A DNA stretch of 64,000 nt from Flaccisagitta enflata (lineage: Eukaryota), in contig OZ231126.1 of NCBI GenBank assembly GCA_965153355.1, positions 33,976,001 through 34,040,000 on the forward strand, in the 5' to 3' direction. The position numbers and the translations under genes are program-made. Every line of letters starts with the position of its first letter. Position 1 is the stretch's first letter. Below are positions 71 through 28,099 of the stretch, one piece after another. The notes under the pieces were generated by a model. It was not told the origin of the DNA and made no database searches. It was given only the letters and a program-made list of their open reading frames with translations.

Positions 71-384
71 ACTGTTAGTCTCTGCTCTTTTCTTGTTAGA
101 CGCGCGAAGACGGCTCAGCACAGTGGTTCCAAAAAATAAAAAGTGCACTAAAATCCTAATTTTCTCCTTAGGACCTATTTCAGACACAGGAAACCCAATG
201 GTGATGTTGAAATTTTTCTGTCACTTAAGGAAATTGCCTTAAGGGCATCTTGAAAAAAGGTAAAAAAATTTTTTTTGAAAAAAAAATATTTGTTAAGCCT
301 AACTGTAGCCTAAGGGTTGCAATAAGTGAAAGCAGGTGTCATTTTACCTCAGTTGAGGATTTCAAGGACTCAAAGGCGTGTTAA

Positions 385-1315
385 AGCCATTTTTCAGCAG
401 TTTTTAGGGTCAAATGCCCATATTTTCAACGACAACACCCTATTGTGAGGCCAGAATTGAGTGCATCTATTCAGAATGCACCTTCCTGTAAATTTTCAGA
501 TTGGCCCTACTCCTTTTCAAGCCTCAATGGTGTTTTAAAGCTATTTTTCAGCAGTTTTTAGGGTCAAATGCCCATTTTTTCAATGGCAACACCCTAGTGT
601 GAGGCCAGAATCAAGTATATCTATTCAGAATACACCTTCCTGTAAATTTTCAGATTGGCCCTACTCTTTTTCAAGCCTCAATCGTGTTTAAAAGCCGTTT
701 TAAAGCCATTTGTAAGCAATTTTTAGGGTCAAATGCCCATATTTTCAACGACAACGCCCTATTGTGAGGCCAGAATCAAGTGTATCTATTCAAAATTCAC
801 CTTCCTGTAAATTTTCAAATTGGCCCTACTCTTTTTCAAGCCTCAATGGTGTTTTAAAGCCATTTTTCAGCAGTTTTTAGGGTCAAATGCTCATATTTTC
901 AACAACAACGCCCTTTGGTGAGGCCAGAATTGAGTGTATCTGTTCAAATTGCACCTTCCAGTAAATTTTCAGATTGGCCCTACTCTTTTTCAAGCCTCAA
1001 TAGGGTTTTAAGGCCTTTTTGAGCAGTTTTTAGGGTCAAACGCTTGATTTTACAACGATATCATCCTACTGGGTAGCCTGAAATTAGTAAATCAATTGAG
1101 ATGTACCTCCCTGTAAAATTTCTGAATGGCCCTTCTCTTCTTCAAGCCGCATCGGCGCTTAAAAGCCTATTTTTGGCAGTTTTTAGGGACTAATGCAATG
1201 CCCATTTTTACCACGGCAACACCTTTTTATGTGGTCAGAAACTTCAGAAGTGTATCAATTCAAAACGTACCTCCCTGTAAATTTTCAGATCAAACCTCTT
1301 CAATTTCAAGAGTCA
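385..1315 (+). repeat. ~154-bp tandem repeat, ~6 units, inside the Transib-type element (mirrored at ~12720-13650)
   Basis: Anchor TTTTTAGGG recurs at 401, 555, 720, 874, 1027 and 1180. Confidence 0.9.
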
Positions 1316-1362
1316 ATGGTCACACACACGCACAGACAAGGGCACACTTACACACACTCACA

Positions 1363-1429
<67 letters not shown>

Positions 1430-1977
1430 GTAGATATATGCGCGAATGTGTCGATGATTAAGAATATCTTTAGTTGCGGACAGGCAACTCTATAAGAGGC
1501 TTTGTCCGTCCATTGGTCCATTGGTCCATTGGTCCATCCAAGGTGATCAAGGCAAAAGTGGAAAAACGAGCATTTTAAATACTTTTTGTGTATGTTTGTG
1601 CTTGGGTGGGTGTTCAGGTGTGGATGGAGGTTGGATGCCCCTGTCCACAAAGATATTGTGACGCCGCATCACTTCTTCCACTTATGTCAAAAAACATGAA
1701 ACAAAGCGATATAAATACTTATTATCTTTTTTTAACCGAGAGTGTGTCGCTGCTATTTAGTCGCTTGCTTTGCGACTCTACACCCCGCTATGTTGGTCCG
1801 TCGGTTGGTCGGTTGGTCCCCTTTTAACTTTTTCGGCGTTTTTTAGCTTTATGAGCCTACTGCTCCTGCCCATTGCCCAAATGCTCTAGTTACCTTCTCT
1901 AGCACTGCTCCTGCCCACCCGCACGCAACTGGGGTGGTCGTGATACAACGAGAGGATCTGAAGATTCCAAATGCGCA

Positions 1978-2509
1978 TGAACCGTTTGCGTGCTTCGCAT
2001 AGCAAAAAAAGGGAGTATCCCTTCACCCTACTTGGTTAATGTGGAGATGCAAAAATCATGAAGATGACCATTTTCTTTTTTTCAAAATTCCGTCATCTTC
2101 CGTTTTTGTTTTGGCTTCAAAGTTTCCACAGATTTCCCCGAATTCAGCAAAATCCTGTGTAGTTTTGTTACAAAAAGGACAATTATTTGTCTTAGAAAAT
2201 CATGATGCTTATAAAAATAAACTAAAATCTTAGAACATAAGCTATGAAAATGCTTGTGAAAAGGCAGAATTGCAATTCTTTAGAAAAAACAATTTGTAAA
2301 AGGTAATTCAAACAATATCAGCATATTGTTTTATCCCACTGCATTATGCAAATTAGGCCCTCAAAAACAATTTTCTAAAAAACGGAAGATAAACGATTTT
2401 TTGTTAAAAGAAAAAAGGTAAGGGTCCTAAAATTTGTCACTCCGCATTAGGTAAAAAGGGCGAAAAGAAAAAAATAACTTTTGCTATGTGAAGCACCCAA
2501 ATGAACCAT
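1978..2509. mobile_element. Nested MITE inside the Transib-type element
   Basis: Inverted ends GTGCTTCGCATAGCAAAA / TTTTGCTATGTGAAGCAC. Exact termini and TSD not resolved. Confidence 0.55.
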
Positions 2510-3019
2510 GTCCGTCAGGTTTTTTTCCCGTGAAAATTTTCGGGCCTAGTACTCAGCAAATAAATAAGGCCAAGTTGAGGCCAGTAAGTGCGCCTCGCTT
2601 GATTAAGAATTTGTGAATGATTTTTTTGAGGAATGAATGAATGAATGAATGAACAAATAAATGAATGAAAATGAATGTCGTAAGGCAGAAAAGGTGATAG
2701 GAATGAAGAAATACGTCAGAATCAGCCGTTTTCCACATTTCAAACGTTTGCGTGACCGACCGACCAACCGACCAACCGACAGACTTGACCTTTTAAAGAA
2801 GTGCGAGGACGCACTTAAAAAGTAGAAAACAAGAGTTTTTTATACTGTTCCTGTATGTTTGTGTGTGAGAGGGGGGTTAGGTTGTGGTTGGGGGCTGAAC
2901 GCCCCTGTCCAGTGTCCACCCCTCTGCAACAATATCATGACTTATTTCTTAAATTTTTTTCTTTTTTGCGTTTGGTTTCTATATTACGACAAAGTAAAAA
3001 TATGAAAATCCTGAAGTGA

Positions 3020-3147
3020 ATTGTCGTTGTTTTTGTTGTTGTTGCTTTCGTTATTGTAGCTGTTGTTGTAGTTGTCATTGCCGTTGTTGTTGCTTTTGTT
3101 GTTGCTGCCTTGTTTTGTTGTTACTGTTGTTTTCACTGTAATCTACG

Positions 3148-3181
<34 letters not shown>

Positions 3182-3223
3182 AGTCTTTGTTTTTGTCATT
3201 ATTGTCGTTGTCGTTGTTGTTAA

Positions 3224-3256
<33 letters not shown>

Positions 3257-3290
3257 CTTCATTGATGATGTTCTTTGATGTTGTCATTGT

Positions 3291-3360
<70 letters not shown>

Positions 3361-3385
3361 GATGTTGATGTGGTTGTTGTTGTTT
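3020..3385. repeat. (GTT)n-rich low-complexity tract (mirrored at ~10680-11020)
   Basis: Direct reading; source of the poly-V/L/N/Q ORFs. Confidence 0.9.
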
Positions 3386-4876
3386 TTTCTTCCCTGCATC
3401 AAAAGCGATCAAAATCTCTTCGGCAAGCACAGTTGAAACGTTGCATAATGAACACTGCCATAGTTCCACTACACATAAAGCACGAATCAGGACTAAAACG
3501 ATTTTCTGAATGGCGTAACCATGGTAACGCGACAACAAACATAAGCATTGAATGACTTGAGTCAAGAAAAGATGTTTAGGTCCCCAGTCATTTTCCCGCC
3601 AAAAATCGGATACGATTTTTTTTGTTTCTATTTTTTTCGAAACGCGTGTAATCGCGAGTGGAAATGACTGTACCAGGCCACTCCCACCAGTATCCTGAAT
3701 CGTAATAACCCTCGAAATTTTTTAGCAAATTTTAGCATTTCCGCTGGGAGCGCCAAAAACATACAGGAGCAACATTTGTTGCTTTTTGTGGGATTGCTTA
3801 GCTACGCAAGCTTGAGCCCTTCTTAGATGATGAACCATGTCATTACCTTTCGTTTGGTACCCTGCATGAAACTTTTCTCCTAACAGTGCCGTGATTGGCA
3901 TGGAAACAAAATTCTTCACCGGATGAGTCAAGCGAACTGTAAATTTCATTTTCTGGTTGAACGCAGGCGGGATTAAGAATGAGCTTGGTACCAAATGAAA
4001 TAGAATGGCATGTTTAGTCATAATATACAAAAAAATAAATTCCGAAAATTTTCACCACTGAATGCGGAATTATTCAAAAGGAACGAATGTGCAGTGGCCC
4101 CGAAGGGGTCGATGACCTATGCTTTCACACAGGGGGATTTTCTCCCCCTTCTCCTTCATCCCGCCCACCTCTTTGGGGCCGCTGCTCGCTCCCCCTTCAA
4201 CTTCAAGTACGACCTACTTAGGCAGGGCACGGGTACTGCTGATCATCTAACGCTTTTGCGACTATTTAAGCTTCAGCTTTCAAATCAGCCCTCCAAAAAC
4301 TTAAATCAGCCCTCCCAAACTATAAATCAACTTTCTCAGGTTCAAGATCAGCCCTAACATGCCTTCATCAACACAGTGTCTCATCTCTTTTTGGCTGGAC
4401 AATCAAAAAATCCTCCTCTTCTACAGGACTTTGTCCTCTTTGAGATTGCTGCCCTCCCGCCTCCTTTCCCTCACACCAATTTACAATTGCATATACAAGC
4501 AACAGGTGTTGCTGACAAATTGCTCTTGAGTGACTTTTTTTCTTTGGAGCTTTTTGGGCAGCGATCCCAAAGGTACATACAGTTAAACCCCGCTCAAACG
4601 GATTTCAGGGGACCAACAAATTTAATCTGTTATAGGCGGAATTCTGTTATAGCAAACATATGAAATAAAAGAAAATTAGTTGAAGGGACAAAGAATTAAT
4701 ATCTGTTATAGGTGGAATCCCGTTAAAAGTGGGTCCGTTAGAGTGGGGTTCAACTGTAGTCATTTAAAACACAGATGGAAATTGTTCATTAAACCTTTTA
4801 TCTTTTTGTCTTCCCCTTATCATCATCAGGCCTTGAAAGTCTCAAATCAGCCCTCTCAAGGCACAGATCAGCCCTC

Positions 4877-6365
4877 AACAGGTCGCCCAAGGGCAATATG
4901 TGGTCAGCGATACCCGTTGCCCTGCTTTGCATGATTGTGAATCGTAGTGAGAGGAAGCAGGGCAGCAGCCCGAAAGGGGACGATGTCCTGTAGAACACAG
5001 GGGACTTTTGTTTGTTTGTTTGTCGTTTGTCCATCTCCCCTCCAAGGCCCTCACAGTGCTGAAATCTGCCCTCTCAGGCCTGAAATCTGCCTATTCAGAT
5101 TCAAACTCTGAGAGGGCAGATTTCAGGCCTGAGAGGGCAGATTTCAGGCCTAAGAGGTCAGATTTCAGGCCTGAGAGGTCAGATTTCAAGCCTGAGAGGA
5201 CAGATTTCAGGCCTGAGAGGACTGATTTCAGGCCCGAGAGGGTAGATTTTAGGCCTGAGAGGGTAGATTTCAGGCCTGAGGGGATAGATTTCAGACCTGA
5301 GAAGGCAGATTTAAGGCCTGAGAGGGCAGATTTCAGGCCTGAAAGGTCAGATTTCACGCCTGAAAGGTCAGATTTCACACCTGAGAGGGCAGATTTCAGG
5401 CCTTAGAGGGCAGATTTCAGGCCTGAGAGGGTAGATTTTAGGCCTAAGAGAGTAGATTTCAGACCTGAGAAGGCAGATTCAAGGCCTGAAAGGGCAGATT
5501 CCAGGCCTAATAGTCGCAAAAGCGTTAGATGGTCAGCGGTACCCGTTGCCCCTGTGTGAGCACATGTTGATGTGTGATGGTGAGAGGGGCAGCGGCCCCG
5601 AAGGGGCCGATGACCTATGCTATTAGGTTTTGAGGCTCTAGGCTTTAAGTCTCAAGGCTGTGATTTGAGCTAAGATACTGGGATTTGAGCCATGAGGGAG
5701 GGAGTTGTACCGCAAAGCTGGGATCTGAGCCTTGAGGCTGTGATTTGAGCCAAGATGATGGGATTTGAGCCTTGAGGCTGTGATTTGAGCCTCAACGCTG
5801 GGATTTGAACCTTGGGACTGGGATTTGAGCCTCGAGGCTGGGGTTTGAGCCTCGAGGCTGGGAGTTGAGCCTCCAGGCATGGGTTTGAGACTCATTGCTG
5901 GGATTTGACACTTGACGTTGTAATTTAAGCCTCATTGCTGGGGTTTGAGCCTCGGGACTAGGACTTGAGTCTCCAGGATGGGGTTTGAGCTTTGAGGCTG
6001 GGAGTTGAGCCTCCAGGCTTGGGTATGAGCCTAATGGCTGGGATTTGAGCCTTGAGGCTGGAATTTGAGCGTTGAGGCTGGAATTTGAGCCTCACGGGGG
6101 GGGGGACGACGGAGGAGAAGAAGGAGAAGGAGAAGGAGAAGGAGGAGAAATTTCCCCTATGTGTGAAAGCATAGGTCATCGGCCCCTTCGGGGCCGCTGC
6201 CCAAAAGGGCAGATTTCAGGCCTGAAAGGTCAGATTTCAGGCCTGAGAGGGCAGATTTCAGGCCAGGCCGAGGGGGGGGGACGGATAAACAAAGAAACAA
6301 ACGAACGAACGAAAGTCCCCTGTGTTCTACAGGACATCGTCCCCTGCGGGGCCGCTGCCCAAAAA
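4877..6365 (-). mobile_element. HINE-like element family 2 with central 21-bp tandem array (GAGAGGGCAGATTTCAGGCCT)
   Basis: Subterminal inverted repeats GGGCAGCAGCCCGAAAGGGGACGATGTCCTGTAGAACACAGGGG, asymmetric tail, A/T-run flanks, array at ~5055-5505. Confidence 0.6.
5509..6206 (-). mobile_element. Nested HINE-like family 2 copy with a different 21-bp array (GGCTGGGATTTGAGCCT...)
   Basis: 35-bp inverted pair GGGCAGCGGCCCCGAAGGGGCCGATGACCTATGCT at 5587 and 6168-6202. Inserted at an AA in the host array without a TSD. Relatives at ~4092-4265, ~21670-22095, ~46350-46835 and ~52130-52400. Confidence 0.6.
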
Positions 6366-7487
6366 CCTAAAATCAGCTCTCTCCGACCTCAAATCAGCCC
6401 TCAGACCTCTGAATAGGTGTCTCTGACCTATAGCCAGCCTTCACAGGCCTTTAATTAGCCGTAATGGGCATCAAATAAGCCGTTACAAGCCTCACATTGG
6501 CCCTGTATATCCTGAAATAAGCCCTCTCAGGCCACAATTCAGCTTTCTTAGGCATCAAATAAACTCTTTAAGGCTTCAAATCAGCCTGGCCAGCACCAAG
6601 CATTTAATCATTCCAAATTAGAGGAGGGATTTAACAAAAACCACCTTAGAAAAATTGTAATACTGGGTTTTTTGGTGGTTTTGCACTGTACATAGGCTGT
6701 ACCAAGCTAAGAAAAGAAGTTGACTGAAAAATTATTTCTGCAAAGCGGCTGGTTGGGATGTTTGTAAGTACATGAAAAATAGGCGAAAATTCGCCAAAAT
6801 TGACCTTCCAAAAACCAGGAAATAAATACAATAGTAGAAAATACTTTGCATATAAAGCATAAAATTCATATCAATAATTAGCTAAGACATCTTTTCAAGT
6901 TATAATGTCATCTTATGATATTGAGGTGTCCTGGAGTAGCTCGTCAACTGCTTTCTATACACAATAAATGTTGACTCATCTATCTCATTTTTTACATCTT
7001 TCATATCTCAGACAAAAAAATCAAATGTTAGACTGGTAAAAAACTAATCTATTGGAATAATGACAAAAAGCAAAAAAAAAAAGTGGATACACATCTACCC
7101 CAGTTGTATGCGGTTGGGCAAAGGCAGTGAAAGAAAAGGTAACTAAGGCACAAAAAAGTAAAAGTTGCAAAATTGTTAGATGGTCTGCCATACCATTGCC
7201 CTGCTTAATTAGGTTGTGCTTGAAGTTGAGGGGGGAGCATGGCAGTGGCTGTATGTCAATTTGTCCATTTGTCCCCCACTGACTAAAATCCTAGATTCAA
7301 CGCCCAAATTCCAGTCTCAAGGCCCAAATCCTAGTTTCAAGGCCCAAATCCCAGCCTTGAGGCTAAAATCCTATCCTCAAGGCTCAAATCCCACCCTAGA
7401 GACTGGGATTTAGGTCTCATGGGTGGGATTTGGGTGTCAAAGGTAGGATTTGAGTCTTGAGGATAGACCAACAGACAGTCCTGATTT

Positions 7488-7575
7488 TAGAGCGGGCCCG
7501 CGGGCCCAAGGCCCGCATTTTGGCAGTCGGGCCCGCAAGTTTTTCCTGCTGCGGGCCCGACAGGCCCGCTCTCAT
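7488..7575 (+). mobile_element. Solitary hAT-like terminus with GGGCCCG subterminal repeats
   Basis: TAGAGCGGGCCCG start and repeated GGCCCG motifs; no partner end seen. Confidence 0.4.
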
Positions 7576-7638
7576 TTTGCTTGAAATTTATTGCTATTGC
7601 TGAAGTGGGAATATTGATTTTTGAATTGGACTTATGCT

Positions 7639-7702
<64 letters not shown>

Positions 7703-8159
7703 ATCAACTTTCATTCCTTTTCTATTTCTCTCTTTTTTCTTTTTCTCTCTCTTTTTTCTTTCTTTCCTCCTCCTCCATCCTTTCCCCCCTCCCCAGGCTC
7801 GAGGCTTGAATCCCAGTCCTGAGACCCAAATCCCAGCCTCGTGGCCCAAATCTTAGCCTGTCTTGGCTGGGATTTGGGCCTCAAGGCTGAAATTTGGGCC
7901 TTCAGTCTAGGATTTGGGCCTCAACGCTAGGATTTGGGCCTCCAGGCTAGGATCTGGGCTACAAGGCTGAGATTTGGGTTTCAGGACTGGAATGCGAGCC
8001 TCGAGCCTGGGGGGGGGGGGAGGAGGAGACGGTTATTACGAAAATGTCTTAATTTTTATACCTCATCCGATTTGTCTTTTTTCTCTTTTGTTACAAGCTA
8101 AATTCTCACTTACAAAATTGTCTTAATTTTCTTCGAATGTCTTAATGCTATCGTTTATT

Positions 8160-8470
8160 GGCATTCGGGATTGGCATGTTGGGCATTTGATGGAGAGTTC
8201 AAGTTTCGTGATTCAAGATTCGTGATTCGTGATTCGCGATTCGCGATTACAAAAAGAGGACGGCTTCACTGATTTCTTTCTCTTCGGAATTCGAGATTCG
8301 AGATTCGGGATTCGGGATTCGGGATTCGGGATTCGGGATTCGGGATTCGGGATTGGAATTAAACTTTTCAAACTTTCTTTTTTTTATATTCGGGATTCGG
8401 GATTCGGGATTGGAATAAAACTTTTCAAACTTTCTTTTTTCATTTTCGTGATTCGGGATTCAAGATTGGA
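8160..8470. repeat. 7-bp minisatellite (GGATTCG)n, degenerate
   Basis: Direct reading. Confidence 0.85.
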
Positions 8471-8689
8471 AATAGGCCTCTCAATATTTTTAGGTGCGAC
8501 AAAGCACCTCTATAACTGACTGTGTCCGTTGGTTGGTCGGTTGGTCGGTTGGTTGGTCGGTCGGTCGGGTAACGCATTCGTTCGACGATCCACACGTCGC
8601 ACCTTATTGGCCTACTTGGCCTTGTTTTCTTATTTTGGGGATTCGAGATTCATGATTGCGTCTTAGAGTTTCAAACTTGATCTTTGTTA

Positions 8690-9028
8690 CTACCTAGGGA
8701 AATAGTTTTCGTTCACTTGATGAAGATATTCATTTACTGAATAAGTATCAAGTGGGTAGGTGTTTTATCTTTTTCAGTACCTCATCTGATGTCCTGCCTA
8801 AGTTATGACTGCTTCCATTTGGCTAGGTGACTGTATACTCAAAAAATGGTAGTCATATTCAAATTGCTCCAATTTCTAAACGCTTTGAGCCACTGGAATA
8901 GGATTGGTCCCATATGGTAGAACCTCTGAAGAGGTTTCTAAATTTCTCAGATTTTTCCTATTTATCATCACTAGAAGTAAATTCATTATTTCTTATAGGT
9001 GAACGAAGACTTATTTCCCAGGAAGTAG
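8690..9028. mobile_element. MITE
   Basis: Inverted ends CTACCTAGGGAAATAGTTTTCGTTCAC / GTGAACGAAGACTTATTTCCCAGGAAGTAG. Confidence 0.6.
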
Positions 9029-9278
9029 TCAAGATTCGGGATTGCCTGACTTGTTTGTCATATTGATCCTTTTTTTTTTGCGACTGGATCTATTTGAGTT
9101 GGTTAAGATGCTTTTTTTCCCGTCCGTTATTTTCCCTTTTTATCGTATATTTCACGCAAGTGAATATGAAATTTGGTCTGTCCATCTATTTCATTTTTAC
9201 TAAAACTAAGTAGTGATTTTATCCATGATTCTTTCCTAGATCGAGCAAATTGAAAGAAACGGCCACCGAGCCATAATT

Positions 9279-9505
<227 letters not shown>

Positions 9506-9970
9506 AAAAAATAATGGCCTTAACATCTTTCATAATGTTGCAGTGCTTTTCTCAGTTATTCCAAATGTTGGTGATGTAATAACTCTCTGGTGCGATTCAT
9601 GCTGTTCATGTATGTTTACAACGTTGCTCATTTCAATTGCATGAACGCAATTTATGAGTCTGAAGCAATTCGAACTTTGATTCTACATTTATTTCAAGTC
9701 TCCATCAGTATGTTTCATGTCTTTTTAAATGACATGAATAGCTTCTGCACTGCCCCTATCCAGCCGCTCGCGATTTCATCCCTTATCCTGCGACACACTT
9801 TTATAAATCATGACAATCAATCTCAAACGAATAAATGTAATTTCTACCAAGATATGGTCAATTCAACAATAGAGTGGTTTCAAGACTTTTATTGCCGTAT
9901 CAGTCCAATTATTTCGGGCCAATGAGAATTTGCAGAAAGGTTTTCACCGTGAACGTCGACTTCCACTGAG

Positions 9971-10696
9971 CACATTCGTTCCTTTTGAATAATTCCGCAT
10001 TCAGTGGTGAAAATTTTCGGAATTTATTTTTTTGTATATTATGACTAAACATGCCATTCTATTTCATTTGGTACCAAGCTCATTCTTAATCCCGCCTGCG
10101 TTCAACCAGAAAATGAAATTTACAGTTCGCTTGACTCATCCGGTGAAGAATTTTGTTTCCATGCCAATCACGGCACTGTTAGGAGAAAAGTTTCATGCAG
10201 GGTACCAAACGAAAGGTAATGACATGGTTCATCATCTAAGAAGGGCTCAAGCTTGCGTAGCTAAGCAATCCCACAAAAAGCAACAAATGTTGCTCCTGTA
10301 TGTTTTTGGCGCTCCCAGCGGAAATGCTAAAATTTGCTAAAAAATTTCGAGGGTTATTACGATTCAGGATACTGGTGGGAGTGGCCTGGTACAGTCATTT
10401 CCACTCGCGATTACACGCGTTTCGAAAAAAATAGAAACAAAAAAAATCGTATCCGATTTTTGGCGGGAAAATGACTGGGGACCTAAACATCTTTTCTTGA
10501 CTCAAGTCATTCAATGCTTATGTTTGTTGTCGCGTTACCATGGTTACGCCATTCAGAAAATCGTTTTAGTCCTGATTCGTGATTTATGTGTAGTGGAACT
10601 ATGGCAGTGTTCATTATGCAACCTTTCAACTGTGCTTGCCGAAGAGATTTTGATCGCTTTTGATGCAGGGAAGAAAAAACAACAACAACCCACATC

Positions 10697-10769
<73 letters not shown>

Positions 10770-10803
10770 ACAATGACAACATCAAAGAACATCATCAATG
10801 AAG

Positions 10804-10852
<49 letters not shown>

Positions 10853-10863
10853 AAACAAAGACT

Positions 10864-10897
<34 letters not shown>

Positions 10898-12615
10898 CGT
10901 AGATTACAGTGAAAACAACAGTAACAACAAAACAAGGCAGCAACAACAAAAGCAACAACAACGGCAATGACAACTACAACAACAGCTACAATAACGAAAG
11001 CAACAACAACAAAAACAACGACAATTCACTTCAGGATTTTCATATTTTTACTTTGTCGTAATATAGAAACCAAACGCAAAAAAGAAAAAAATTTAAGAAA
11101 TAAGTCATGATATTGTTGCAGAGGGGTGGACACTGGACAGGGGCGTTCAGCCCCCAACCACAACCTAACCCCCCTCTCACACACAAACATACAGGAACAG
11201 TATAAAAAACTCTTGTTTTCTACTTTTTAAGTGCGTCCTCGCACTTCTTTAAAAGGTCAAGTCTGTCGGTTGGTCGGTTGGTCGGTCGGTCACGCAAACG
11301 TTTGAAATGTGGAAAACGGCTGATTCTGACGTATTTCTTCATTCCTATCACCTTTTCTGCCTTACGACATTCATTTTCATTCATTTATTTGTTCATTCAT
11401 TCATTCATTCATTCCTCAAAAAAATCATTCACAAATTCTTAATCAAGCGAGGCGCACTTACTGGCCTCAACTTGGCCTTATTTATTTGCTGAGTACTAGG
11501 CCCGAAAATTTTCACGGGAAAAAAACCTGACGGACATGGTTCATTTGGGTGCTTCACATAGCAAAAGTTATTTTTTTCTTTTCGCCCTTTTTACCTAATG
11601 CGGAGTGACAAATTTTAGGACCCTTACCTTTTTTCTTTTAACAAAAAATCGTTTATCTTCCGTTTTTTAGAAAATTGTTTTTGAGGGCCTAATTTGCATA
11701 ATGCAGTGGGATAAAACAATATGCTGATATTGTTTGAATTACCTTTTACAAATTGTTTTTTCTAAAGAATTGCAATTCTGCCTTTTCACAAGCATTTTCA
11801 TAGCTTATGTTCTAAGATTTTAGTTTATTTTTATAAGCATCATGATTTTCTAAGACAAATAATTGTCCTTTTTGTAACAAAACTACACAGGATTTTGCTG
11901 AATTCGGGGAAATCTGTGGAAACTTTGAAGCCAAAACAAAAACGGAAGATGACGGAATTTTGAAAAAAAGAAAATGGTCATCTTCATGATTTTTGCATCT
12001 CCACATTAACCAAGTAGGGTGAAGGGATACTCCCTTTTTTTGCTATGCGAAGCACGCAAACGGTTCATGCGCATTTGGAATCTTCAGATCCTCTCGTTGT
12101 ATCACGACCACCCCAGTTGCGTGCGGGTGGGCAGGAGCAGTGCTAGAGAAGGTAACTAGAGCATTTGGGCAATGGGCAGGAGCAGTAGGCTCATAAAGCT
12201 AAAAAACGCCGAAAAAGTTAAAAGGGGACCAACCGACCAACCGACGGACCAACATAGCGGGGTGTAGAGTCGCAAAGCAAGCGACTAAATAGCAGCGACA
12301 CACTCTCGGTTAAAAAAAGATAATAAGTATTTATATCGCTTTGTTTCATGTTTTTTGACATAAGTGGAAGAAGTGATGCGGCGTCACAATATCTTTGTGG
12401 ACAGGGGCATCCAACCTCCATCCACACCTGAACACCCACCCAAGCACAAACATACACAAAAAGTATTTAAAATGCTCGTTTTTCCACTTTTGCCTTGATC
12501 ACCTTGGATGGACCAATGGACCAATGGACCAATGGACGGACAAAGCCTCTTATAGAGTTGCCTGTCCGCAACTAAAGATATTCTTAATCATCGACACATT
12601 CGCGCATATATCTAC

Positions 12616-12685
<70 letters not shown>

Positions 12686-13914
12686 GTGTGCCCGTGTCTG
12701 TGCGTGTGTGTGACCATTGACTCTTGAAATTGAAGAGGTTTGATCTGAAAATTTACAGGGAGGTACGTTTTGAATTGATACACTTCTGAAGTTTCTGACC
12801 ACATAAAAAGGTGTTGCCGTGGTAAAAATGGGCATTGCATTAGTCCCTAAAAACTGCCAAAAATAGGCTTTTAAGCGCCGATGCGGCTTGAAGAAGAGAA
12901 GGGCCATTCAGAAATTTTACAGGGAGGTACATTTCAATTGATTTACTAATTTCAGGCTACCCAGTAGGATGATATCGTTGTAAAATCAAGCGTTTGACCC
13001 TAAAAACTGCTCAAAAAGGCCTTAAAACCCTATTGAGGCTTGAAAAAGAGTAGGGCCAATCTGAAAATTTACTGGAAGGTGCAATTTGAACAGATACACT
13101 CAATTCTGGCCTCACCAAAGGGCGTTGTTGTTGAAAATATGAGCATTTGACCCTAAAAACTGCTGAAAAATGGTTTTAAAACACCATTGAGGCTTGAAAA
13201 AGAGTAGGGCCAATTTGAAAATTTACAGGAAGGTGAATTCTGAATAGATACACTTGATTCTGAACTCACAATAGGGCGTTGTCGTTGAAAATATGGGCAT
13301 TTGACCCTAAAAATTGCTTACAAATGGCTTTAAAACGGCTTTTAAACACGATTGAGGCTTGAAAAAGAGTAGGGCCAATCTGAAAATTTACAGGAAGGTG
13401 TATTCTGAATAGATACACTTGATTCTGGCCTCACACTAGGGTGTTGCCATTGAAAAAATGGGCATTTGACCCTAAAAACTGCTGAAAAATGGCTTTAAAA
13501 CACCATTGAGGCTTGAAAAAGAGTAGGGCCAATCTGAAAATTTACAGGAAGGTGCATTCTGAATAGATGCACTCAATTCTGGCCTCACAATAGGGTGTTG
13601 TCGTTGAAAATATGGGCATTTGACCCTAAAAACTGCTGAAAAATGGCTTTAACACGCCTTTGAGTCCTTGAAATCCTCAACTGAGGTAAAATGACACCTG
13701 CTTTCACTCATTGCAACCCTTAGGCTACAGTTAGGCTTAACAAATATTTTTTTTTCAAAAAAAATTTTTTTACCTTTTTTCAAGATGCCCTTAAGGCAAT
13801 TTCCTTAAGTGACAGAAAAATTTCAACATCACCATTGGGTTTCCTGTGTCTGAAATAGGTCCTAAGGAGAAAATTAGGATTTTAGTGCACTTTTTATTTT
13901 TTGGAACCACTGTG
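9971..13914 (-). mobile_element. Non-autonomous Transib-type DNA transposon, copy B
   Basis: Reverse complement of 119-4091, differing only by a few substitutions and microsatellite lengths. Ends GGAACCACTGTG. Confidence 0.75.
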
Positions 13915-16109
13915 CGCTGCCAAAAAAGCTGATTTCAGGCCTGAAACAGCTATATTGGGGAAGTCTGGTTCAAGGGCTGATTAGAGGGTTGGCTGATATA
14001 AGGTCCATCCAATCCAACAAACTTCATACAGCTGTCTACCTCAATAATTTGTTCAGTTGCTAGTCTCACTCAGTGGTCAGCTACAAAGTGGAGATGGTCC
14101 TCATTCAAAAAGTTGAGGAGCTAGCCAGACAAACAGTTTGTATGAAGACTCAAGACTGATTTAGGGCTGATTTAGGTCCCTGAGAGGCTTGAGGGGGGGG
14201 GGAGTTGCAAACAAAACAAGCAGACAGACAAATAGACACAAGAAGGAAAGCCCCATGGTCTGCAGGATTTTGTAAAACAAGAGACTTTAGTTATTCATCC
14301 ATTTGTCGCTCCCAGAGGTACTGATTCCATGTAGCAAGATAGCAATGCTATGCAGCAGGATGAAAAAAAAATACAGCAGGGATGGCAGGCAGGGAGAAAA
14401 TATGGTGGAAGTTTGTAAAAAAAAACGCTTAATTGCAAGAAAAAAGTTATGAAGACTTCAATCAAATTAATGTAAGGGCTAAAATGTTTTGCTCATCATT
14501 ATTTATTATCCAATTTCTACTGGGATTTAGCTTCCGTAATCTGCGCCTCTGGTTCATTCCTCTTACCCCCCCTCTCAAAAGGCTTCTAAAGTCTCAAATC
14601 AGCTCTCTCAGACCTCAAATTAGCCCTCTCATGCCTCAAATTAACTCTCTGAGGCCTGAACTCAGCTCTAGAAAATCTAAGATCAGTTTTACAGGATTGT
14701 AGTCAACCCTACAGGGCTTCAAATAGGACCTTCCTAGCCTCAAATCCGTTCTCTCAGCCCTAAAATCAGTCGTAACAGAACTCAAATCAGCCCTAAAGGT
14801 CTCAAATTTCCATACAACCCCCTATATAGATTCCAAATTAGATCTCTCAGGCACCAAATTGGGTCCCTCAGGCTGAAAATCAGTTAAGGCTTCAAATCAG
14901 CCCAGCCAGCTTCCTTAAGCTTCAAATCAACATTGAGGAAGCATTCAGGTCATCAATGGCCTCAGTCAGCCCTCATTTGTTATAAGTGATTTTTGCTAGG
15001 CTGGATAAATGGAAGTTTTTTACAGGCTGCTGCCCAAAAATCCCCTACATTTCACAAGAATGCTTATAACTCCCTTTAAGGGTTGCTGCCCGGCTGTGTC
15101 TTACTTAAGATTTTCATAATACAATTTGGGATATATTAACAGATACATAGACAAACTATAAGACAAACCAACAACTAGCTCAACAGACATTGACTCTTTT
15201 AGCAAGGCAAGAATGCATCAACAAACATGATCTTATCACAAGAAAAAGATGGTGAAATCTTCCAATAATCTTCTGATATTGCCAATCTTTGACCTCTTTT
15301 AATTGAGTTGTTACTTAAGGGATTCACAAAAAATCGGTGATGGTTGAAAAGAGCTTCAAAAAATCTTTAAGATGAGTCCAATCTGGCATTTCTAGCTTTG
15401 TCCATTCAAAAGTTATGTGCAAAACAAGTAAAATTGTGAAAAAAAAGGAAAACTTCAATGACATGGAAAATTAACAAAAATCCTCATTTTCTTCCTCATG
15501 TTTGACAGACTATAACTTGATTGTTTTTCAACGGATTTACAAAAAATTGGTGACGGTTTGAAAGATCTTGAAAAGATCTTTAAAATGAGACCAATCTGGC
15601 ATTTCCTGCTTTATGCGTTTAAAAGTTATGAGCAAAACAAGGTTGATTGTCCAAAAAATAGGAAAATTTGATGACCTGTACCTCTGAGAGGTAAAACAGT
15701 AAAGTATTTCAAAAGGCGCCACAAGAATTATTTTGGAGTAAGTTGGGATAGATTAGATACATGTCTGACGATCAGAAACCATGGAAAAAGTGGCAGTATT
15801 CCTACTTTAAAGCACATGGTGGAAAAATTGAACAGTGAAAAGAATTCTATAGCCGAATCTTTTCTTATTATGAATCTCTCAGCTTTAGGAGATAAAATGA
15901 TGTAGATGATGGTTCACTATGGCAGTTGGGCTATTGCTTATAATGACTCATTTGGTGTGTCTCTATTGACAACAATCGCCGTTAATCCCAGGCGTCGCGT
16001 CGCCTTAAAATCGTGAACACATTTTCAATTATTCATTAATATTAATCATCTTATGAGAGATTGAGGGGGTGAGCAAAGTGAGCCAGGGTATGTAAGAATG
16101 AAAAGAATC

Positions 16110-17362
16110 AATAGACAGAATTGAGATTGAACAGATAGAATCGCGATACGCAATTGAACAGACAGAAATGGGATTAAAGCATCAAAATCGGGATTGAACG
16201 GACAAAATTGTTATTAAGCAAACAGAAACAGCAGACAGAATCGGGGGTCAACAGACGGAATCATAAGTTAACAGAAAGAATCAGGAGTAAACAGAAGGAT
16301 TCAGGAGTTAACAGACAGTCAGGAGTCAACAGACGAAATCGCGAGTCAGACGGAATTGTGAATCATCAGACGGAATCACGAGTCTACGGACGGAATCGCG
16401 AGTCTATGGACGGAATCGCGAGTCTACAGACAGAATCGCAAGTCTACAGACAGAATCGCGAGTCTACAGACGGAATAGCGAGTCTACAGACAGAATGGCG
16501 GGTCTACTGACGGAATTGTGAGTCTACAGACGGAATCGTGAGTCTACAGACGGAATCGCGAGTCTACAGATGGAATCGCGAGTCTACAGACGGAATCTCA
16601 AGTATACAGACGGAATCGCAAGTCTACAGATGGAATTGCAAGTCTACAGACGGAATTGTGAGTCTACAGACGGAATCCCGAGTCTACAGTCGCAATCCCG
16701 AGTCTACAGACGGAATCGTGAGTCTACAGACGGAATTGCGAGTCTACAGACGGAATTGCGAGTCTACAGATGGAATGGCGAGTCTACAGACAGAATCGCG
16801 AGTCTACAGACGGAATCACGAGTCTACAGACGGAATCGCGAGTCTACAGACGGAATTGCGAGTCTAAAGACGGAATTGCGAGTCTACAGACGGAATTGCG
16901 AGTCTACAGACGGAATCGCAAGTCTACAGACGGAATCGCAAGTCTACAGACGGAATCGCGAGTCTACAGATGGAATTGCGAGTCTAAAGATGGAATTGCA
17001 AGTCTACAGATGGAATCGCAAGTCTACAGATTGAATCGCGAGTCTACAGATGGAATCGCGAGTCTACAGATGGAATCGCGAGTCAACAGAAGGAATCGCG
17101 AGTCTACAGACAAAATCGCAAGTCTACAGACGGAATGGCGAGTCTACAGACGGAATCGCGAGTCTACAAATGGAATGGCAAGTCTACAGACGGAATCATG
17201 AGTCTACAGACAGAATTGCAAGTCTACAGACGGAATCGCTAGTCTACAGACGGAATCGCGACTCTACAGACGGAATCGCAACTCTACAGACGGAATCGCG
17301 ACTCTACAGATGGAATCGCGAGTCACAGATGGAATCGCGAGTGTAGAGATGGAGTCTACAGA
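16110..17362 (+). repeat. 20-bp minisatellite (AGTCTACAGACGGAATCGCG)n, ~48 regular units plus a degenerate 5' part
   Basis: Strict 20-bp period from 16381 to ~17340. Confidence 0.95.
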
Positions 17363-20916: not shown

Positions 20917-22782
20917 TAGTTGTTTACTGGCAAATTCATTCTCCTAAATGTTTCAGCCGACTACTGCACTGGAAGTGCAACCAGCTCAGAATTCTTGAAT
21001 TTTCCTTTTTGGATGCCGCTGCCTGCGTCTACCGACATAGTCTTACTTCGAGTGGACAATCTCTTTTTACTAGATTTTTTGTCTTTGTGACAGTCTTCAT
21101 GCTTCGCTGTCATCATTGACATTTCGCCGTCTTTATCAATATTCAGATAGCCTTGTTACATTTCCTTGCATTTGCTTCTTTCGTAACTTTTGTAGAACCG
21201 TCAAAAACCTCTGAAGCCGCTTTTCTCGTTCTGCCAAAAGAGGAGAAAGGGAGGAAAGAGATAATGAAGAAGAAGAAAAGAATCTCCTACAAGTCTCGAG
21301 GCACTTCAAGCAACGAAAAAGAAATGGCCAACTACTCTTTCTTTCTTTTCTCTGTCTCTTCTTCTTCATCTTCATCTTCATCTTCATCTTCATCTTCATC
21401 TTCATCTTCATCTTCATCTTCATCTTCATCTTCATCTTCATCTTCTTCTTCTCGATTTCGCGTCATGGGCTGAGAAAGAGAGTGAATGAGATTTTACAAC
21501 TGGCGAGGGAGACGAGAGAAAAGAGAAATAATGCGATAAGTGGGAATAGTCGTCATTAGTTTCGGGTCCAAGAGATATTGTGCCATCGGTGCGGCACATT
21601 GCTTTGTAATCAGTCTCATCATTATTTTCTTTTTCGCTGCCAGAGTTCTGTACTCGAAGAGTACTTCTCGAGCAGCGGCACCAAAGAGATTGATGACCTG
21701 AGCTTTCACATATGGAAACATTTTTTCTTCTTTTTTTCTTTTTTCACATTCCTAGCCTGGAGGCCCAAGTTTCAGCCTTGAAGCCCAAATCCCAGCCAAG
21801 AGACCCAGATCCCAGCCTCCAGGCTAGGATTTGGGCCTCCAGGCTAGGATTTGGGCCTCCAGGCTGGGATTTGGGCCACGAGGCTGGGATTTGGGTCTTG
21901 GGTCTGGGATTCGAGCCTCGAGCCGGGGGGGGGGGGGCGGATGGATGAACGGAGGAGAAAATTCCCCATATGTGTGAAAGCATATGTCACCGACCCCTTC
22001 GAGGCCGCTGCCCTGCTTCCCCTTCAACTTCAAACACTACCTACCCAGGCAGGGCACGGGTACCGCTGACCATCAAACGCTTTTGCGACTATTTACTTTA
22101 GTCTGCTGCTCCATCACTATCTTATTCTCACACACATAAACTTAGAGGCATCGGGTACCTCCTAACCATCTAACACTTTAGCGTCTATTTCTGTTTCTTT
22201 TTCTGTCTCTGATGTGATTGAATGTAAGAAGCCATTTCATCCATTTTTAGATGCGTCCTCGCACTTGTATACGAGGGTTTGTACGTCCGTTTGTACATAA
22301 AACGATTCAACCGCCGCGAGGGTTTGTCCATCCGTACATATGACCTCAGATATGTCTTTACAGAAAACGCTGTTTCCGGTAGTTATTGGCCACAATAATG
22401 CTGGCGTCCTAGTCAACCCTATTTCTTATCCGTACATAAATTCAGCTATCACTCTGCACGGAGAAGCAATCAGTTCGCATCGTTGCCCGGACGAGACACA
22501 AAAGCAGAAAGTTTTGGTATTGACATTTTGGTGAAGGTCTGTTAATATCTCGTTCATTCCGGAGAATCTTATTGACAATATCAGTTTTCCTTACACGCCG
22601 AAATGAATATGGAAAAAAAAATATAAAGAAATATAAAGCTATTTATGAAAAAGCTGTCAAGACTGAAGCAGCGTCGTATGACTGAAAATTTTTTAGATAG
22701 AGTGGCAAAAAGGAAAAATAATGGATTGTTCATTTATTTTGATATTCTTTCAAATCTAGATCAAGGAACCAGTGGCAAAAAA

Positions 22783-22829
<47 letters not shown>

Positions 22830-23299
22830 TGTTCCTGATCAATTGAGGGTCGACAGAAAAGGAAACGAATATATCCAATATGACTTTGAATATTTTATTT
22901 CAAGAGGACGCGAAAACGCCCTCGGAACAGCAGCACCAATACCATATCCTAGAAACGTTCATCCATTCAGATTCAACCCCATCCATCACTATAAGTCTCG
23001 ACTAGGAGACGCTATCCTCGGAGCCATAAATCCTATTCACTATTTCATAGGATTTCCATTATAATATCATGATCTCTTCTTCCTTCTTCCATTGTTTTCT
23101 TTTCGATTGGAGATTTTTTTCTTTTCCTTTTTTTTTTATCACTGTCTTCTTTTGATTTCCATCTCATAATTTTTTTTCGTCTCTAATTCCCTTGTCATTT
23201 CTGTTTTTCCATTTATTCCATTGTTTTTTCTTCTGGTTTCTTTTCTTTCTGTTTCCTCTTATCCTTGTTTTCCTTCATTTTGCTGTCCTTCCATTTCTT

Positions 23300-23414
23300 T
23301 CTTTTCTTTCTTCCCTCCTTCCTTCCTTTCTTCCTTCCTTCCTGTCTTTCTTTCTTTCTTTCTTTCTTTCTTTTTCCTTAAAATTGTTTTCCTTCATTTT
23401 GCTGTTCTTCCATT

Positions 23415-23450
<36 letters not shown>

Positions 23451-23517
23451 TTTTCTCCTTAAAATTTCAAATTTCTCCTTCTCTCGCTTTCTTTCTCTCT
23501 TTCTCTCTTTCTCTCTC

Positions 23518-23608
<91 letters not shown>

Positions 23609-24350
23609 TAATCTATCTTCACATTCAAATGCTGTCCTCCACTGCACCTCCCACCACCACAACCTCCAACCCCACCAAAATTATAATTCCTCTCTCATCA
23701 ATAAGAATCTTTTTTCTATCTTTCTCTCTCCATGTCTTCCACGTCTTCTATTTTCTTTCCTTTTTTTCGCCAAAGCCTCAGTCGCGAGGCCCTAATGCCT
23801 CTTTCATCATCTCTTCATATTCTCTTTTTATCCCATCATTTTTTCTTCTATTGTCGTGCCAAACTGTTCTTCTTCTTTTTATCTTCTTCTTTTTCTTTTC
23901 TTCTTCTTTTTCTTTTCTTCTTCTTTTTCTCTTCTTCTTCTTTTTCTTTTCTTCTTCTTTTTCTCTTCTTCTTCTTTTTCTCTTCTTCTTCTTTTTCTCT
24001 TCTTCTTCTTTTTCTCTTCTTCTTCTTTTTCTCTTCTTCTTCTTTTTCTCTTCTTCTTCTTTTTCTCTTCTTCTTTTTCTCTTCTTCTTCTTTTTCTTCT
24101 TTTTTTTCTTTTTTTTCTTTTTTTTTTCTTTTTCTTCTTTTTCTTCTTTTTCTTCTTTTTCTTCTTTTTCTCTTCTTCTTCTTCTTTTTCTTTTTCTTTT
24201 TCTTTTTCTTTTTCTTTTTCTTTTTCTTTTTCTTTTTTTTCCTTTTTCTTATTCTTTTTTTTCTTCTTCTTCTTCTTCTTCTTCTTCTTCTTCTTCTTCT
24301 TCTTCTTCTTCTTCTTCTTCTTCTTCTTCTTCTTCTTCTTCTTCTTCTTC
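23300..24350. repeat. Pyrimidine-rich compound microsatellite (TTTC/CT/CTT)
   Basis: Direct reading; source of the 387-aa F/S/L ORF. Confidence 0.9.
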
Positions 24351-25249
24351 AACCAATTCCCTCGTCTCAGCGTTTAAAAGCTGACGAAAGCCTCTTTCTT
24401 ATATCAATAAAAACTACGACTGTGACGTTGTTTGTTTTGGGCGCGCAACGTCGGCAACGAGTAAGATAAAAGGACGCTTTTATGTACGTTTCAAAAGCGG
24501 ATGGATGAAAGGGGTGGCTACATGAAAAGAAAACAAAGACTGTATGTGAGCATGAATCAACGATTTTTGAAACAAAAAAAATCTACAGTGAAGATACGCA
24601 CAATCAAAGCGTTTTATAATTTCATAAGTTTTGATTATCTAAGAAATGCCATCTTTTCCTCATTATCAGTTTTTAACCGCGCATTGAAAATCAAAGACGA
24701 TAAAGTTAAGTCAAGAGTAAAAAGAATACCGACTTTCATCCGAGATTACGTAAGCCCATGATTGGGGATTTAACTTGACGCTGTGTGTATAAGTCATACT
24801 TTGCCCATTGATTCCAAATTTTCATTCTCGAAAGTCAAAGTTGAGATGAATAGTTGTCCAGCTGAGTACCTGCAGCTCGCATTACCGAGAACTCTCAATT
24901 CAGTATGGCTTCAATTGAATGTTAGAACCAAATTCGTTGAATAACACGTTTTCAAAGATTAAGTGTGGACGACAAAATACATAGTGGGTAAAAGGCGCGA
25001 TAGCGATCATGATCGTGAAGGACATATATAATGTAATGGAGAAGAGCATGCATCTTGCAGATTGAATGAGCTTTGACTAAAGTCGACCAACTCAAATCAT
25101 TAAAAGTCATAACATCATTACTCATAACCTCGCAATCTGGCTGTCAGCAGCATTTCGGTAACTCTAATATGAAAATGATCCTAATTTCACGCTGTCACTC
25201 AACGCTGAAACCAATCTCGGCATTGCATCTCAATATTTCTTTGTGTGTG

Positions 25250-25432
<183 letters not shown>

Positions 25433-25847
25433 ACCCCGCCACTGGCTATAGTCCCTTTCATTCATGCCTTTTTGACAGAACAAAACGCTTATTGATTTTT
25501 TGCCTTCCCGTCGTGTAAAAAAGAAATAAACAAGGCCAAGTAGGCCAACGATGCGTCCTCTTTGAATGAATGTTTTTGATGAATGAATGTTTTTTATGCA
25601 TGAATGTTTTTATGAATGAATGTTTTTTTATGAATGAATGTTTTTTTTATGAATGAATGTCATTTATGAATGGGTTAGAACTATTTTTCTGTTGAAAAAT
25701 GCATGATTTTGATGTTTTTAATGAATGCGTTACCAACCGACCAACAGACCAACCAATGGACACAGCCTATTATAGAGATGCGAGGACGCATCTAAAAAGA
25801 GCGGAAAAGTTTGCGTAATTCTCTCGACCGATCAATGGTTTTGAGTA

Positions 25848-26280
25848 CACGCCGTATTTTTTATAAGAACACAGTTTTTTGAAGTGAGGCCCAGCGTTCT
25901 TATTTTTTGCCAATTTTCAGCCTCAAATGTTCTTAACCGTTCTTATTTTTGTAGCATGGAAATTCTTTATCATAGTTGCTAACTAGTCATATTCAATGAA
26001 ATGAATAAATTTTATTCTCAATGTTTACAATTTTTGCTTATGTTAGGTCATGAAATTTATAAACATGTAAATGATAAAAGTAATTGGTTGAATTGCTTAG
26101 GTTAGAGGATTCTGTACAATGTTTTTTCATAGTTTCCTCAAAAAATTATGCAAAAGCGTACTTTAAAATGTATTTGTGCGGAAATCTGAGCCTGGGCATG
26201 TTCTTAAGATGTTCTTATTTTTTCACCATATCTGAGGCTGATGTTCTTATAAACAGTGTTCTTAGACAAAATACAGCGTG
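25848..26280. mobile_element. Tc1/mariner-type MITE
   Basis: CACGCCGTATTTT...AAAATACAGCGTG with TA TSD; empty site in the paralogous arm at ~58920. Confidence 0.85.
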
Positions 26281-26643
26281 TATACTACAATTTACAAAGA
26301 CTTGGATTGTCAGATGATGTAGGAAAACAAATGACGCGGGGGTCACAATGTCGTTGCGGACGGGAGGGCAGGGGCATACAACCCCCATACACACCCTCGC
26401 CCACCCCAAACACACTCACAAACGCGTTTTTGCACTTTTCAACTCGCGTACTCGACCATCACGGACCAACGGACCAACGGACGGACAAAGTCTCTTATAG
26501 AGTTGCGTGTCAACTAAAAAGAAAGAGGGGAGTGAAAAAGAACTAACTTCGATGCATGTTATGCAAAAATCCTATGCATCGACCGCCTGGAGAATGAAAA
26601 TGAACGAAAATTCTCCGGTTATAAAACCATTATTTTCCTTTCG

Positions 26644-27509
26644 TAGACTTCGACTCGAAAGTTTTCCTAGGTCAGTCAGTAGCTCAATCTTTTGCATGGA
26701 CCTGCTCAGCGCTTTCAATAATGCACGTTTCAAATTTCAAGGTTCTGGCTCAAATACTTTAGAAGTTATGAGCATTTGTTTGAACCATATCAAACTGAAA
26801 AAGTTCCAGGAGAATTTTTAAACTTTCTTTGAAAATATGGCCGGCAGTGAATTTCAACAGAGTCCAAGTTTCTTAAAAAAAAAGTAAAGTTACAGGATTT
26901 TGGATCTAGGCAAATCAAACAATTTCCTATTGATTGCACCCTACTTTTAAAAACTATTTTTCAAAAAAATATTTTGTGATTTTTTTTTCTAAGTCCCCAA
27001 CGTGCGGAACAAAAATTTTCTAAGTTTTTTGAAAAAAAAAATGAAAATACAAGATTTTGGATCTAGGCAAATCAGAAAATTTCCTATCGATTGCACCCCA
27101 CTTTTAAAAACCATTTTTCAAAAAAATATTTTGTGATTTTTTTTTCTAAGTCCTCAACGCGTGACACAAAAATTTTCAAAGTTTTTTTGAAAAAAGAGAA
27201 AATGCAAGATTTTGGATCTAGGCGAAACAAACAATTTCCTATCAATTGCACCCCATTTTTTTTTTTCAGAAAAAAATCCTCATTAAGGGCTTTTTTTGGG
27301 GGCCCTTAGGGGCCCATAAGACGTTCAAAATTTTGGTTAATGAGATCAACAGAGTTATGTGCATACACCAAGGTATCTTTCAGGACCAAATTAAGGCTGA
27401 TTAATTAGACCTCAAGCTCATGCCGTTAATCCCTCTGGCCCGGCCACATTTAAAAGAGAAATCGGAAAATTCACCAGGACTCAGATTCCGGATGTAAGGT
27501 CAATCTCTA
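26644..27509. mobile_element. Non-autonomous DNA transposon with 7-bp TSD and three internal ~157-bp repeats
   Basis: TAGA...TCTA ends, CCTTTCG duplicated on both sides, single CCTTTCG at the empty paralogous site (~58559-58565). Confidence 0.85.
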
Positions 27510-27993
27510 CCTTTCGAGATGAGTCAACAAAGTAAACACTTTGACATGCACAATGATGTGAAAAAAATCTGGATAATGTCAAAACAAAATCACTTTCATC
27601 CCCTTTGTTCTTTTCTTTTTTCTCTACAAGTTCAACTGATGAAGTCCCGTAGACAAAGTTTTGTTATGAAATCGATTCGGTAACTCGCTCAGTTGCAATA
27701 CATTGGTATATGCCCTGTCCTCTCATGTCTTACTGATAAAAGAGGGAGTCAGCCGATACGAAGGCTTGTGCTTGCCTTTCAACCGTGAGAGACTCTTTTG
27801 GAGTAAACGCATCAGAGAGGCAAATTTTGACCTTTTCACTTCTACTTTTGTGAACGAGAACCGATTCAATCAATGAATGCACTTTGGCTCCGAGTAGCCT
27901 TTTCTCTACGAGCGCTCAATGCGATAAGAAACTGTTAGTCAATGAGGTGCGTTCTTGCGCATATCTCCTCTTAATACCGTGTCTTACCCACAG

Positions 27994-28099
<106 letters not shown>

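Follow-up and report, generated by a model that had tools for sequence, protein, structure and literature searches.

The window analysed here, a 64,000-nucleotide stretch of Flaccisagitta enflata contig OZ231126.1, had a G+C content of 40.7% and was rich in microsatellites and minisatellites. The forward strand contained an uninterrupted open reading frame (ORF) of 1,185 aa (41117-44671) for a non-LTR retrotransposon with PHD finger, AP-endonuclease and reverse-transcriptase domains; its closest database relative was just 65% identical, and it is possibly an active LINE. A duplicated gene segment flanks this LINE, with one copy on each side (38045-38624 and 45681-46247, 94.7% identical). A second, decayed non-LTR retrotransposon was represented by a G+C-rich reverse-transcriptase remnant in two overlapping forward frames (54980-56552; RVT_1, E = 1e-31). 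Cysteine-rich exons were found on the reverse strand at 36782-38195 and 45613-45831, with the Pfam WAP four-disulfide-core domain in the ORFs at 37782-38195 and 45613-45831 and none in 36782-37558, and EGF-like exons were recognized by eye in ORF translations at approximately 38.5-39.0 kb and 46.0-46.4 kb. Together these exons appear to belong to a tandemly duplicated host gene, and the only close database relative was 92% identical. Also in the window were a 20-bp minisatellite of about 56 units with approximately 85% identity (16232-17353), which yielded spurious long ORFs and Pfam matches, and an inverted duplication of at least 7.8 kb (20956-28743 and 57321-63999) that was 82-98% identical in blocks. 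The second arm of this duplication is cut off by the right edge of the window; at the first arm, similarity extends just beyond a (TG)n tract at 28743. It may be a long transposon or a segmental duplication.

Near the left end of the window, one sequence of approximately 4 kb was present twice, in opposite orientations (copies A and B, Table 1). The two copies were 98.9% identical over 3,974 aligned columns in the BLAST comparison, and a MAFFT alignment of 3,974 columns contained 16 mismatches and four gap blocks, corresponding to a divergence of 0.4%. Homology between the copies broke off exactly at CAC on one end and GTG on the other. The boundary of the element is ambiguous by 1 bp, with a G on each side, and the 5-bp target-site duplications described below are unaffected by this choice.

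Table 1. Positions of the two element copies, their ends and target sites, and related features in the window.
Feature	Positions	Strand	Basis
Copy A of the element, 3,973 bp	119-4091	+	Homology to copy B starts and stops here
Copy B of the element, 3,944 bp	9971-13914	-	Alignment to copy A
Left terminal inverted repeat, CACAGTGGTTCC; heptamer CACAGTG at 119-125	119-130	+	Exact start of homology
Right terminal inverted repeat, read inward CACATTCGTTCC	4080-4091	-	10/12 match to left end
Left duplicate of the first target site, CTCAG, next to the left end of copy A	114-118	+	5/5 match to the word at the right end of copy B
Second duplicate of the first target site, CTCAG, next to the right end of copy B	9966-9970	-	5/5 match
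Mutated duplicate of the second target site, CAGTG, next to the right end of copy A	4092-4096	+	Paralogues read CAGCG, 4/4
Original duplicate of the second target site, CAGCG, next to the left end of copy B	13915-13919	-	Paralogues
Uninterrupted paralogous target	6195-6199	-	Flank alignments overlap by exactly 5 bp
Spacer between the copies, 5,879 bp, read as inverted relative to the insertion state	4092-9970		In silico flip
154-bp tandem array, 5.9 units	360-1290	+	Repeat detection; counterpart in copy B at 12837-13673
Subterminal block AAAGTGCACTAAAA (140-153) overlapping the nonamer-like word ACTAAAATC (147-155)	140-155	+	12/14 match to the Transib-N1_SP block

Analysis of the ends showed that both copies opened with CACAGTGGTTCC and that the far end, read inward, was CACATTCGTTCC, an inverted match at 10 of the first 12 positions. 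The binomial probability of such a match at both boundaries is approximately 4e-5 (a hand calculation with a match probability of 0.25). A longer terminal inverted repeat was looked for and none was found: past 12 bp the two ends were unrelated. Without gaps, 19 of the first 40 positions matched, and 95 of 500 shuffles did at least as well as the best local alignment between the 120-nt ends. The left end began with the heptamer CACAGTG. This word occurred five times in the window (5.12 expected), a chance frequency, so its weight comes from its placement exactly at the homology boundary. The right heptamer was CACATTC, in which CAC is kept and position 7 is C. The original prediction had described an element of about 4 kb, in near-identical copies and with asymmetric ends, one of them the exact V(D)J heptamer and the other matching 10 of the first 12 bp before diverging, and each of these features was present.

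Searches of the 64-kb window for further copies of the element ends found none. There were also no other elements with CAC...GTG ends matching at 10 or more of 12 positions and flanked by 5-bp duplications matching 5/5 (0 in the window, as against 0-1 in each of 20 shuffles). One candidate with a 4/5 duplication, at 29454-31950, was rejected because its ends fall inside longer inverted arms (29199-29837 and 31559-32231). These arms, approximately 650 bp each and 86% identical, surround 1.7 kb and do not have clean ends; they may represent a long-TIR or foldback-type element in their own right.

The interior of the element had no long ORF. None of the 43 ORFs of at least 40 aa inside copy A (low-complexity ORFs dropped) had a credible Pfam match, and no RAG1 or other transposase was detected among them. 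This indicates that the element is non-autonomous and must be moved in trans. Outside both copies, a Pfam search of the 137 ORFs of at least 70 aa that passed a low-complexity filter likewise found no RAG1 and no other transposase, just two reverse-transcriptase ORFs, two WAP domains and low-complexity noise, and an Rfam search of the whole window found nothing at the gathering threshold. Much of the interior was repetitive. The units of the 154-bp tandem array were about 80% identical to each other, with a higher-order period of 319 bp; after the array came a (CA)n tract (1321-1428) and a (TTG)n tract (3021-3384). The same arrays were present in copy B, and the remaining interior consisted only of short pieces of other dispersed repeats.

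As assembled, neither copy was bounded by matching flanks of its own. Read in the orientation of the element, the pentamers were CTCAG at the left and CAGTG at the right of copy A, and CAGCG at the left and CTCAG at the right of copy B. In other words, the flanks matched crosswise: the left flank of copy A and the right flank of copy B were identical (5/5), and the left flank of copy B differed from the right flank of copy A at one position (4/5). The crosswise matching failed at every other length from 3 to 6 bp. Crosswise flanks are what would be expected if two insertions in opposite orientations had later swapped flanks when the intervening DNA was inverted, and flipping the spacer in silico gave copy A CTCAG on both sides and copy B the pair CAGCG/CAGTG.

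The exchange of flanks could be tested independently, because the second target site lies in a host repeat that has other copies in the window (4092-4170, 5590-5621, 6132-6227, 21932-22010 and 52271-52323). The core of this repeat, GGGCAGCGGCCCCGAAGGGG..., is a G+C-rich double palindrome that folds as two adjacent DNA hairpins, and the second insertion went into one of the repeat copies. Repeat copies often adjoin 20-21-bp minisatellites (5108-5508, 5651-6093, 7285-7397 and 7865-7978). Two flanks aligned within a single continuous paralogue: the left flank of copy B through its last 32 nt, at 6227..6195, and the right flank of copy A through its first 66 nt, at 6199..6132. The continuity of this paralogue and the 5-bp overlap of the two alignments indicate that these flanks were formerly contiguous, that the duplication is 5 bp long, and that the spacer has since been turned. 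All four paralogues (ending at 6199 and 22010 and 52323 on the reverse strand and at 5590 on the forward strand) carried CAGCG once and uninterrupted, so CAGTG at the right of copy A is read as a CG-to-TG change. No uninterrupted paralogue of the first site, CTCAG, was found in the window. In the uninterrupted paralogue of the second site, the pentamer lies between two hairpin-capable palindromes with a predicted fold of -15.8 kcal/mol (z-score -5.5).

The duplications are therefore 5 bp at two independent target sites. The length was read from these two sites because there were only two copies and both sets of flanks were rearranged. Over 30 bp, the G+C content of the two targets was 60% and 67%, compared with 40.7% for the window (n = 2). 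Thus, the 5-bp, G+C-rich duplications of the original prediction held, with a correction that it had not stated, namely that the flanks pair only crosswise. Duplications of 2-4 bp, of the kind made by CACTA or Chapaev elements, were absent from copy B, in which no 2-, 3- or 4-bp match was present (GCG at one end and CTC at the other).

The heptamer at the left end was followed, after a spacer of 21 nt, by the A-rich word ACTAAAATC. As had been predicted, this word matches the nonamer of recombination signal sequences (RSS), ACAAAAACC, at seven of nine positions; it also matches the Transib nonamer consensus, AAAAAAATC, at seven of nine. At 21 nt, the spacer falls 1 nt below the 23 ± 1 range, and an alternative word at a 22-nt spacer matched the RSS nonamer at six of nine positions. 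However, matches of this quality were common in the background. With spacers of 11-13 or 21-24 nt, 51 of the 1,528 CAC sites in the window (3.3%) had a match of at least 7/9 to the RSS nonamer, and 61 (4.0%) had one of at least 7/9 to the Transib nonamer. No nonamer-like word was found at the tested spacers in the right end, where the best match was 5/9. The nonamer-like word of the left end is thus weak, being no better than what 3-4% of background CAC sites provide. Compared with a 23-type RSS, the element has the heptamer exactly and a 7/9 A-rich word, but the spacer is 21 nt, the nonamer is on one end and at background level (3.3%), and CACAGTG is the end of a transposon with a target duplication, whereas an RSS adjoins a gene segment.

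CAC...GTG ends together with 5-bp duplications in G+C-rich targets are the signature of the Transib superfamily. Transib was the sole eukaryotic DNA transposon superfamily with 5-bp duplications as of Kapitonov and Jurka 2005 (PMC1131882), who described a preference for G+C-rich targets and a 38-bp terminal inverted repeat consensus composed of CACAATG, a 23-bp spacer and AAAAAAATC, and who noted unequal 5' and 3' ends in some families. We consider it probable that the locus contains two inverted copies of a non-autonomous Transib-superfamily DNA transposon of approximately 3.95 kb, the flanks of which were later exchanged. Because there is no transposase in the window, the superfamily assignment is a structural one. 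A RAG1-like DDE transposase encoded elsewhere would bind the CAC-heptamer ends and would nick them, forming hairpins on the flanking DNA; the 3'-OH ends of the element would then join the target with a 5-bp stagger, generating the 5-bp duplication. The resemblance to an RSS is a well-known trait of Transib ends and not a sign of a special link to RAG.

Comparison with published families was consistent with this assignment. All seven family consensus termini in Fig. S4 of PMC1131882 start with CAC[A/T][A/G/T]TGG, and CACAGTG is the terminal heptamer in three of the seven, so an exact RSS heptamer is nothing unusual in this group. The left end of the element starts with CACAGTGG, as Transib-N1_SP does, and fits the Fig. 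S4 pattern; over 8 nt it is the same as the termini of both Transib-N1_SP and TransibN3_AG, and the same as the 3' terminus of TransibN1_AG (PMC1131882). The right heptamer departs from this pattern at position 7, which is C here and G in all seven published consensus termini. Under the Repbase rule for non-autonomous elements, which calls for the same duplication length and at most one mismatch over terminal positions 1-11 (PMC4455052), the element could be placed with none of the seven Fig. S4 families; the best was Transib-N1_SP, with two mismatches in 11 (hand comparison).

Transib-N1_SP, from the purple sea urchin (Fig. S4g), is also non-autonomous, with 5-bp duplications in G+C-rich targets. 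Past its first 8 nt, the left end of the element scored higher against the Transib-N1_SP terminus than 4,999 of 5,000 shuffles, and six of the 1,528 CAC-anchored sites in this sequence attained the same score; the element's own left ends should account for two of the six. About 22 nt in from its terminus, Transib-N1_SP carries the block AAAGTGCGCCAAAA; the corresponding block here, AAAGTGCACTAAAA, matches at 12 of 14 positions and is located 1 nt closer to the end, while positions 9-21 differ between the two. This likeness is supportive and not decisive, and its significance should be discounted several-fold, because Transib-N1_SP was picked after comparing seven families. There were also clear differences. 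Transib-N1_SP is approximately 0.9 kb long with long near-perfect terminal inverted repeats, whereas the element is 4 kb with a 12-bp inverted match and an unrelated right subterminus, and the Transib-N1_SP copies in Fig. S4 mostly target CGNCG, whereas the targets here were CTCAG and CAGCG. The mosquito family TransibN1_AG (Fig. S4a) combines the heptamers CACATTG and CACAGTG on one element, similar to the combination of CACATTC and CACAGTG seen here, and many duplications in TransibN1_AG and TransibN3_AG (Fig. S4a, S4c) are of the CAGTG or CACTG-like type, close to CAGCG/CAGTG at the second site. The two ends of these mosquito families are alike over about 18 nt apart from one heptamer difference, and past 8 nt they have no likeness to the element.

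Other classifications were weighed against the same evidence. One is that the element derives from a RAG-like (RAG1L/RAG2L, ProtoRAG-type) transposon and not from Transib proper. CAC ends, 5-bp duplications and terminal inverted repeats that are alike only near the heptamer would all be shared with that group, in which the similarity of the two ends is confined to approximately 12-15 bp in ProtoRAG/RAGL-B and P. flava RAGL-A elements, compared with 12 bp here; the exact RSS heptamer, the A-rich subterminal stretch on the left end alone, and the report of a few non-autonomous RAG-like elements in PMC7204232 point in the same direction. However, the protostome consensus given there, CACTWMCAAACKTYKBB, has an A-rich TR2 block after the heptamer with AAA at positions 8-10, and this block is missing from the element, both ends of which read GTT there. 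The P. flava RAGL-A 5' terminal inverted repeats shown in the supplement of PMC10629977 start with CACAGCGTAACATG or CACACCGTAACATG and are unlike the element beyond CACA, and the left end resembles a Transib terminus instead. The window also has no RAG1L or RAG2L reading frame, and the element has no coding capacity. A RAG-like origin is thus improbable, and of the Transib/RAG-type element originally predicted, the Transib part is kept, on its CAC...GTG ends, 5-bp duplications, G+C-rich targets and left terminus, while the link to ProtoRAG and RAG-like transposons is not, given GTT in place of AAA at positions 8-10.

CAC-ended elements are also found in the CACTA/EnSpm-Mirage-Chapaev group, and the 5-bp matches could in principle be accidental. 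The CACTA/EnSpm, Chapaev and Mirage lineages make 2-4 bp duplications, and copy A as assembled has CAG on both sides, which can be read as a 3-bp duplication; CAG is present on both sides because the two target sites are alike. Termini of the form 5'-CA..TG-3' are described as common to these lineages in PMC12730594. A shorter duplication, however, cannot explain the crosswise matches of 5/5 and 4/5 together with the 5-bp overlap in the paralogue, and copy B is without such a match. The wider CACTA-Transib clade makes duplications of 2-5 bp (PMC12730594), of which 5 bp is the Transib length (PMC1131882), and membership in one of the other lineages is very unlikely. Still more doubtful is a hAT5-type or Ginger2/TDD element. 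Families of hAT5 with 5-bp duplications exist (PMC12730594, citing Repbase Reports), and TDD-4 and TDD-5 produce duplications of that length (PMC2836005), but the third terminal base of hAT elements is always G according to the legend of Fig. S7 of PMC1131882 and is C here, and hAT elements prefer AT-rich targets (PMC1131882) whereas those here were G+C-rich. Ginger termini are TGTNR, metazoan Ginger2 elements make 4-bp duplications, and Ginger2 prefers AT-rich targets (PMC2836005). It is equally hard to credit that the copies are no transposon at all but an inverted segmental duplication with edges that resemble terminal inverted repeats by chance. The window does contain another large inverted duplication (20956-28743 and 57321-63999); against this, the edges of the copies are exact and carry a 10/12 inverted repeat starting with CAC, they split a host repeat that is continuous in four of four paralogues, with a 5-bp duplication, and the two copies are located in two unrelated target sequences.

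The present arrangement is best explained as follows. Two insertions of the element took place in opposite orientations, at sites separated by 5.9 kb, one into unique DNA (CTCAG) and the other into the G+C-rich, hairpin-prone host repeat (CAGCG). The spacer would have been inverted after both insertions, leaving each copy with one flank of the other. The likeliest cause of the inversion would be homologous recombination, with the 4-kb copies acting as inverted repeats. Differences between copy A and copy B were clustered, with all 20 outside a central run of 1,844 bp that contained no difference. A difference-free run of at least this length was obtained in one of 20,000 simulations with 20 events, and in 72 of 20,000 when neighbouring differences were merged into 13 clustered events. 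This tract fits recombination or gene conversion between nearby inverted copies. Eight of the 16 substitutions fell within the 154-bp array (513-1100), and one of the ten duplicated target-site bases has already mutated. Recent mobility of the element is plausible, though near-identity is partly suspect as a clock because gene conversion would erase differences.

The inversion step, as distinct from the identity of the element, has two other possible explanations. The assembler may have placed the spacer in the wrong orientation, in which case the true genome would have ordinary matching duplications at both copies. A unique segment between long near-identical inverted repeats can be assembled either way unless reads span a whole repeat, the repeats flanking this spacer are 98.9% identical, and flipping the spacer restores both duplications. 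The 1,844-bp tract bears on this in two ways: it could reflect collapsed reads, and it also points to sequence exchange between the copies, which makes real recombination plausible. A mis-oriented spacer and a real inversion look alike within the sequence of the window, and mis-orientation is a serious possibility, if on balance an unlikely one. It is far less likely that the transposase itself inverted the spacer, by paired cleavage at the facing right ends and precise rejoining to the opposite spacer ends. The two right ends do face each other across the 5.9-kb spacer, the inversion lies exactly at the element boundaries, and a hybrid-joint reaction is known for RAG1/2. If this were the case, a Transib-type enzyme would have carried out, naturally and within a genome, the equivalent of inversional V(D)J joining on its own transposon ends, and it would mean that two ends without a nonamer can be paired.

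The element is unremarkable within a transposon group that is well known; RSS-like ends on non-autonomous Transib elements have been on record since 2005. Unless it is already in Repbase, it adds a Transib family with very short (12-bp) and unequal ends, in which 12 bp, a heptamer plus five, may be sufficient to mobilize a cargo of 4 kb. The locus is also a clean case of a target-site duplication that was masked by a later inversion and could be recovered from paralogous empty sites, and it shows nearby inverted transposon copies driving structural rearrangement, or misleading an assembler.
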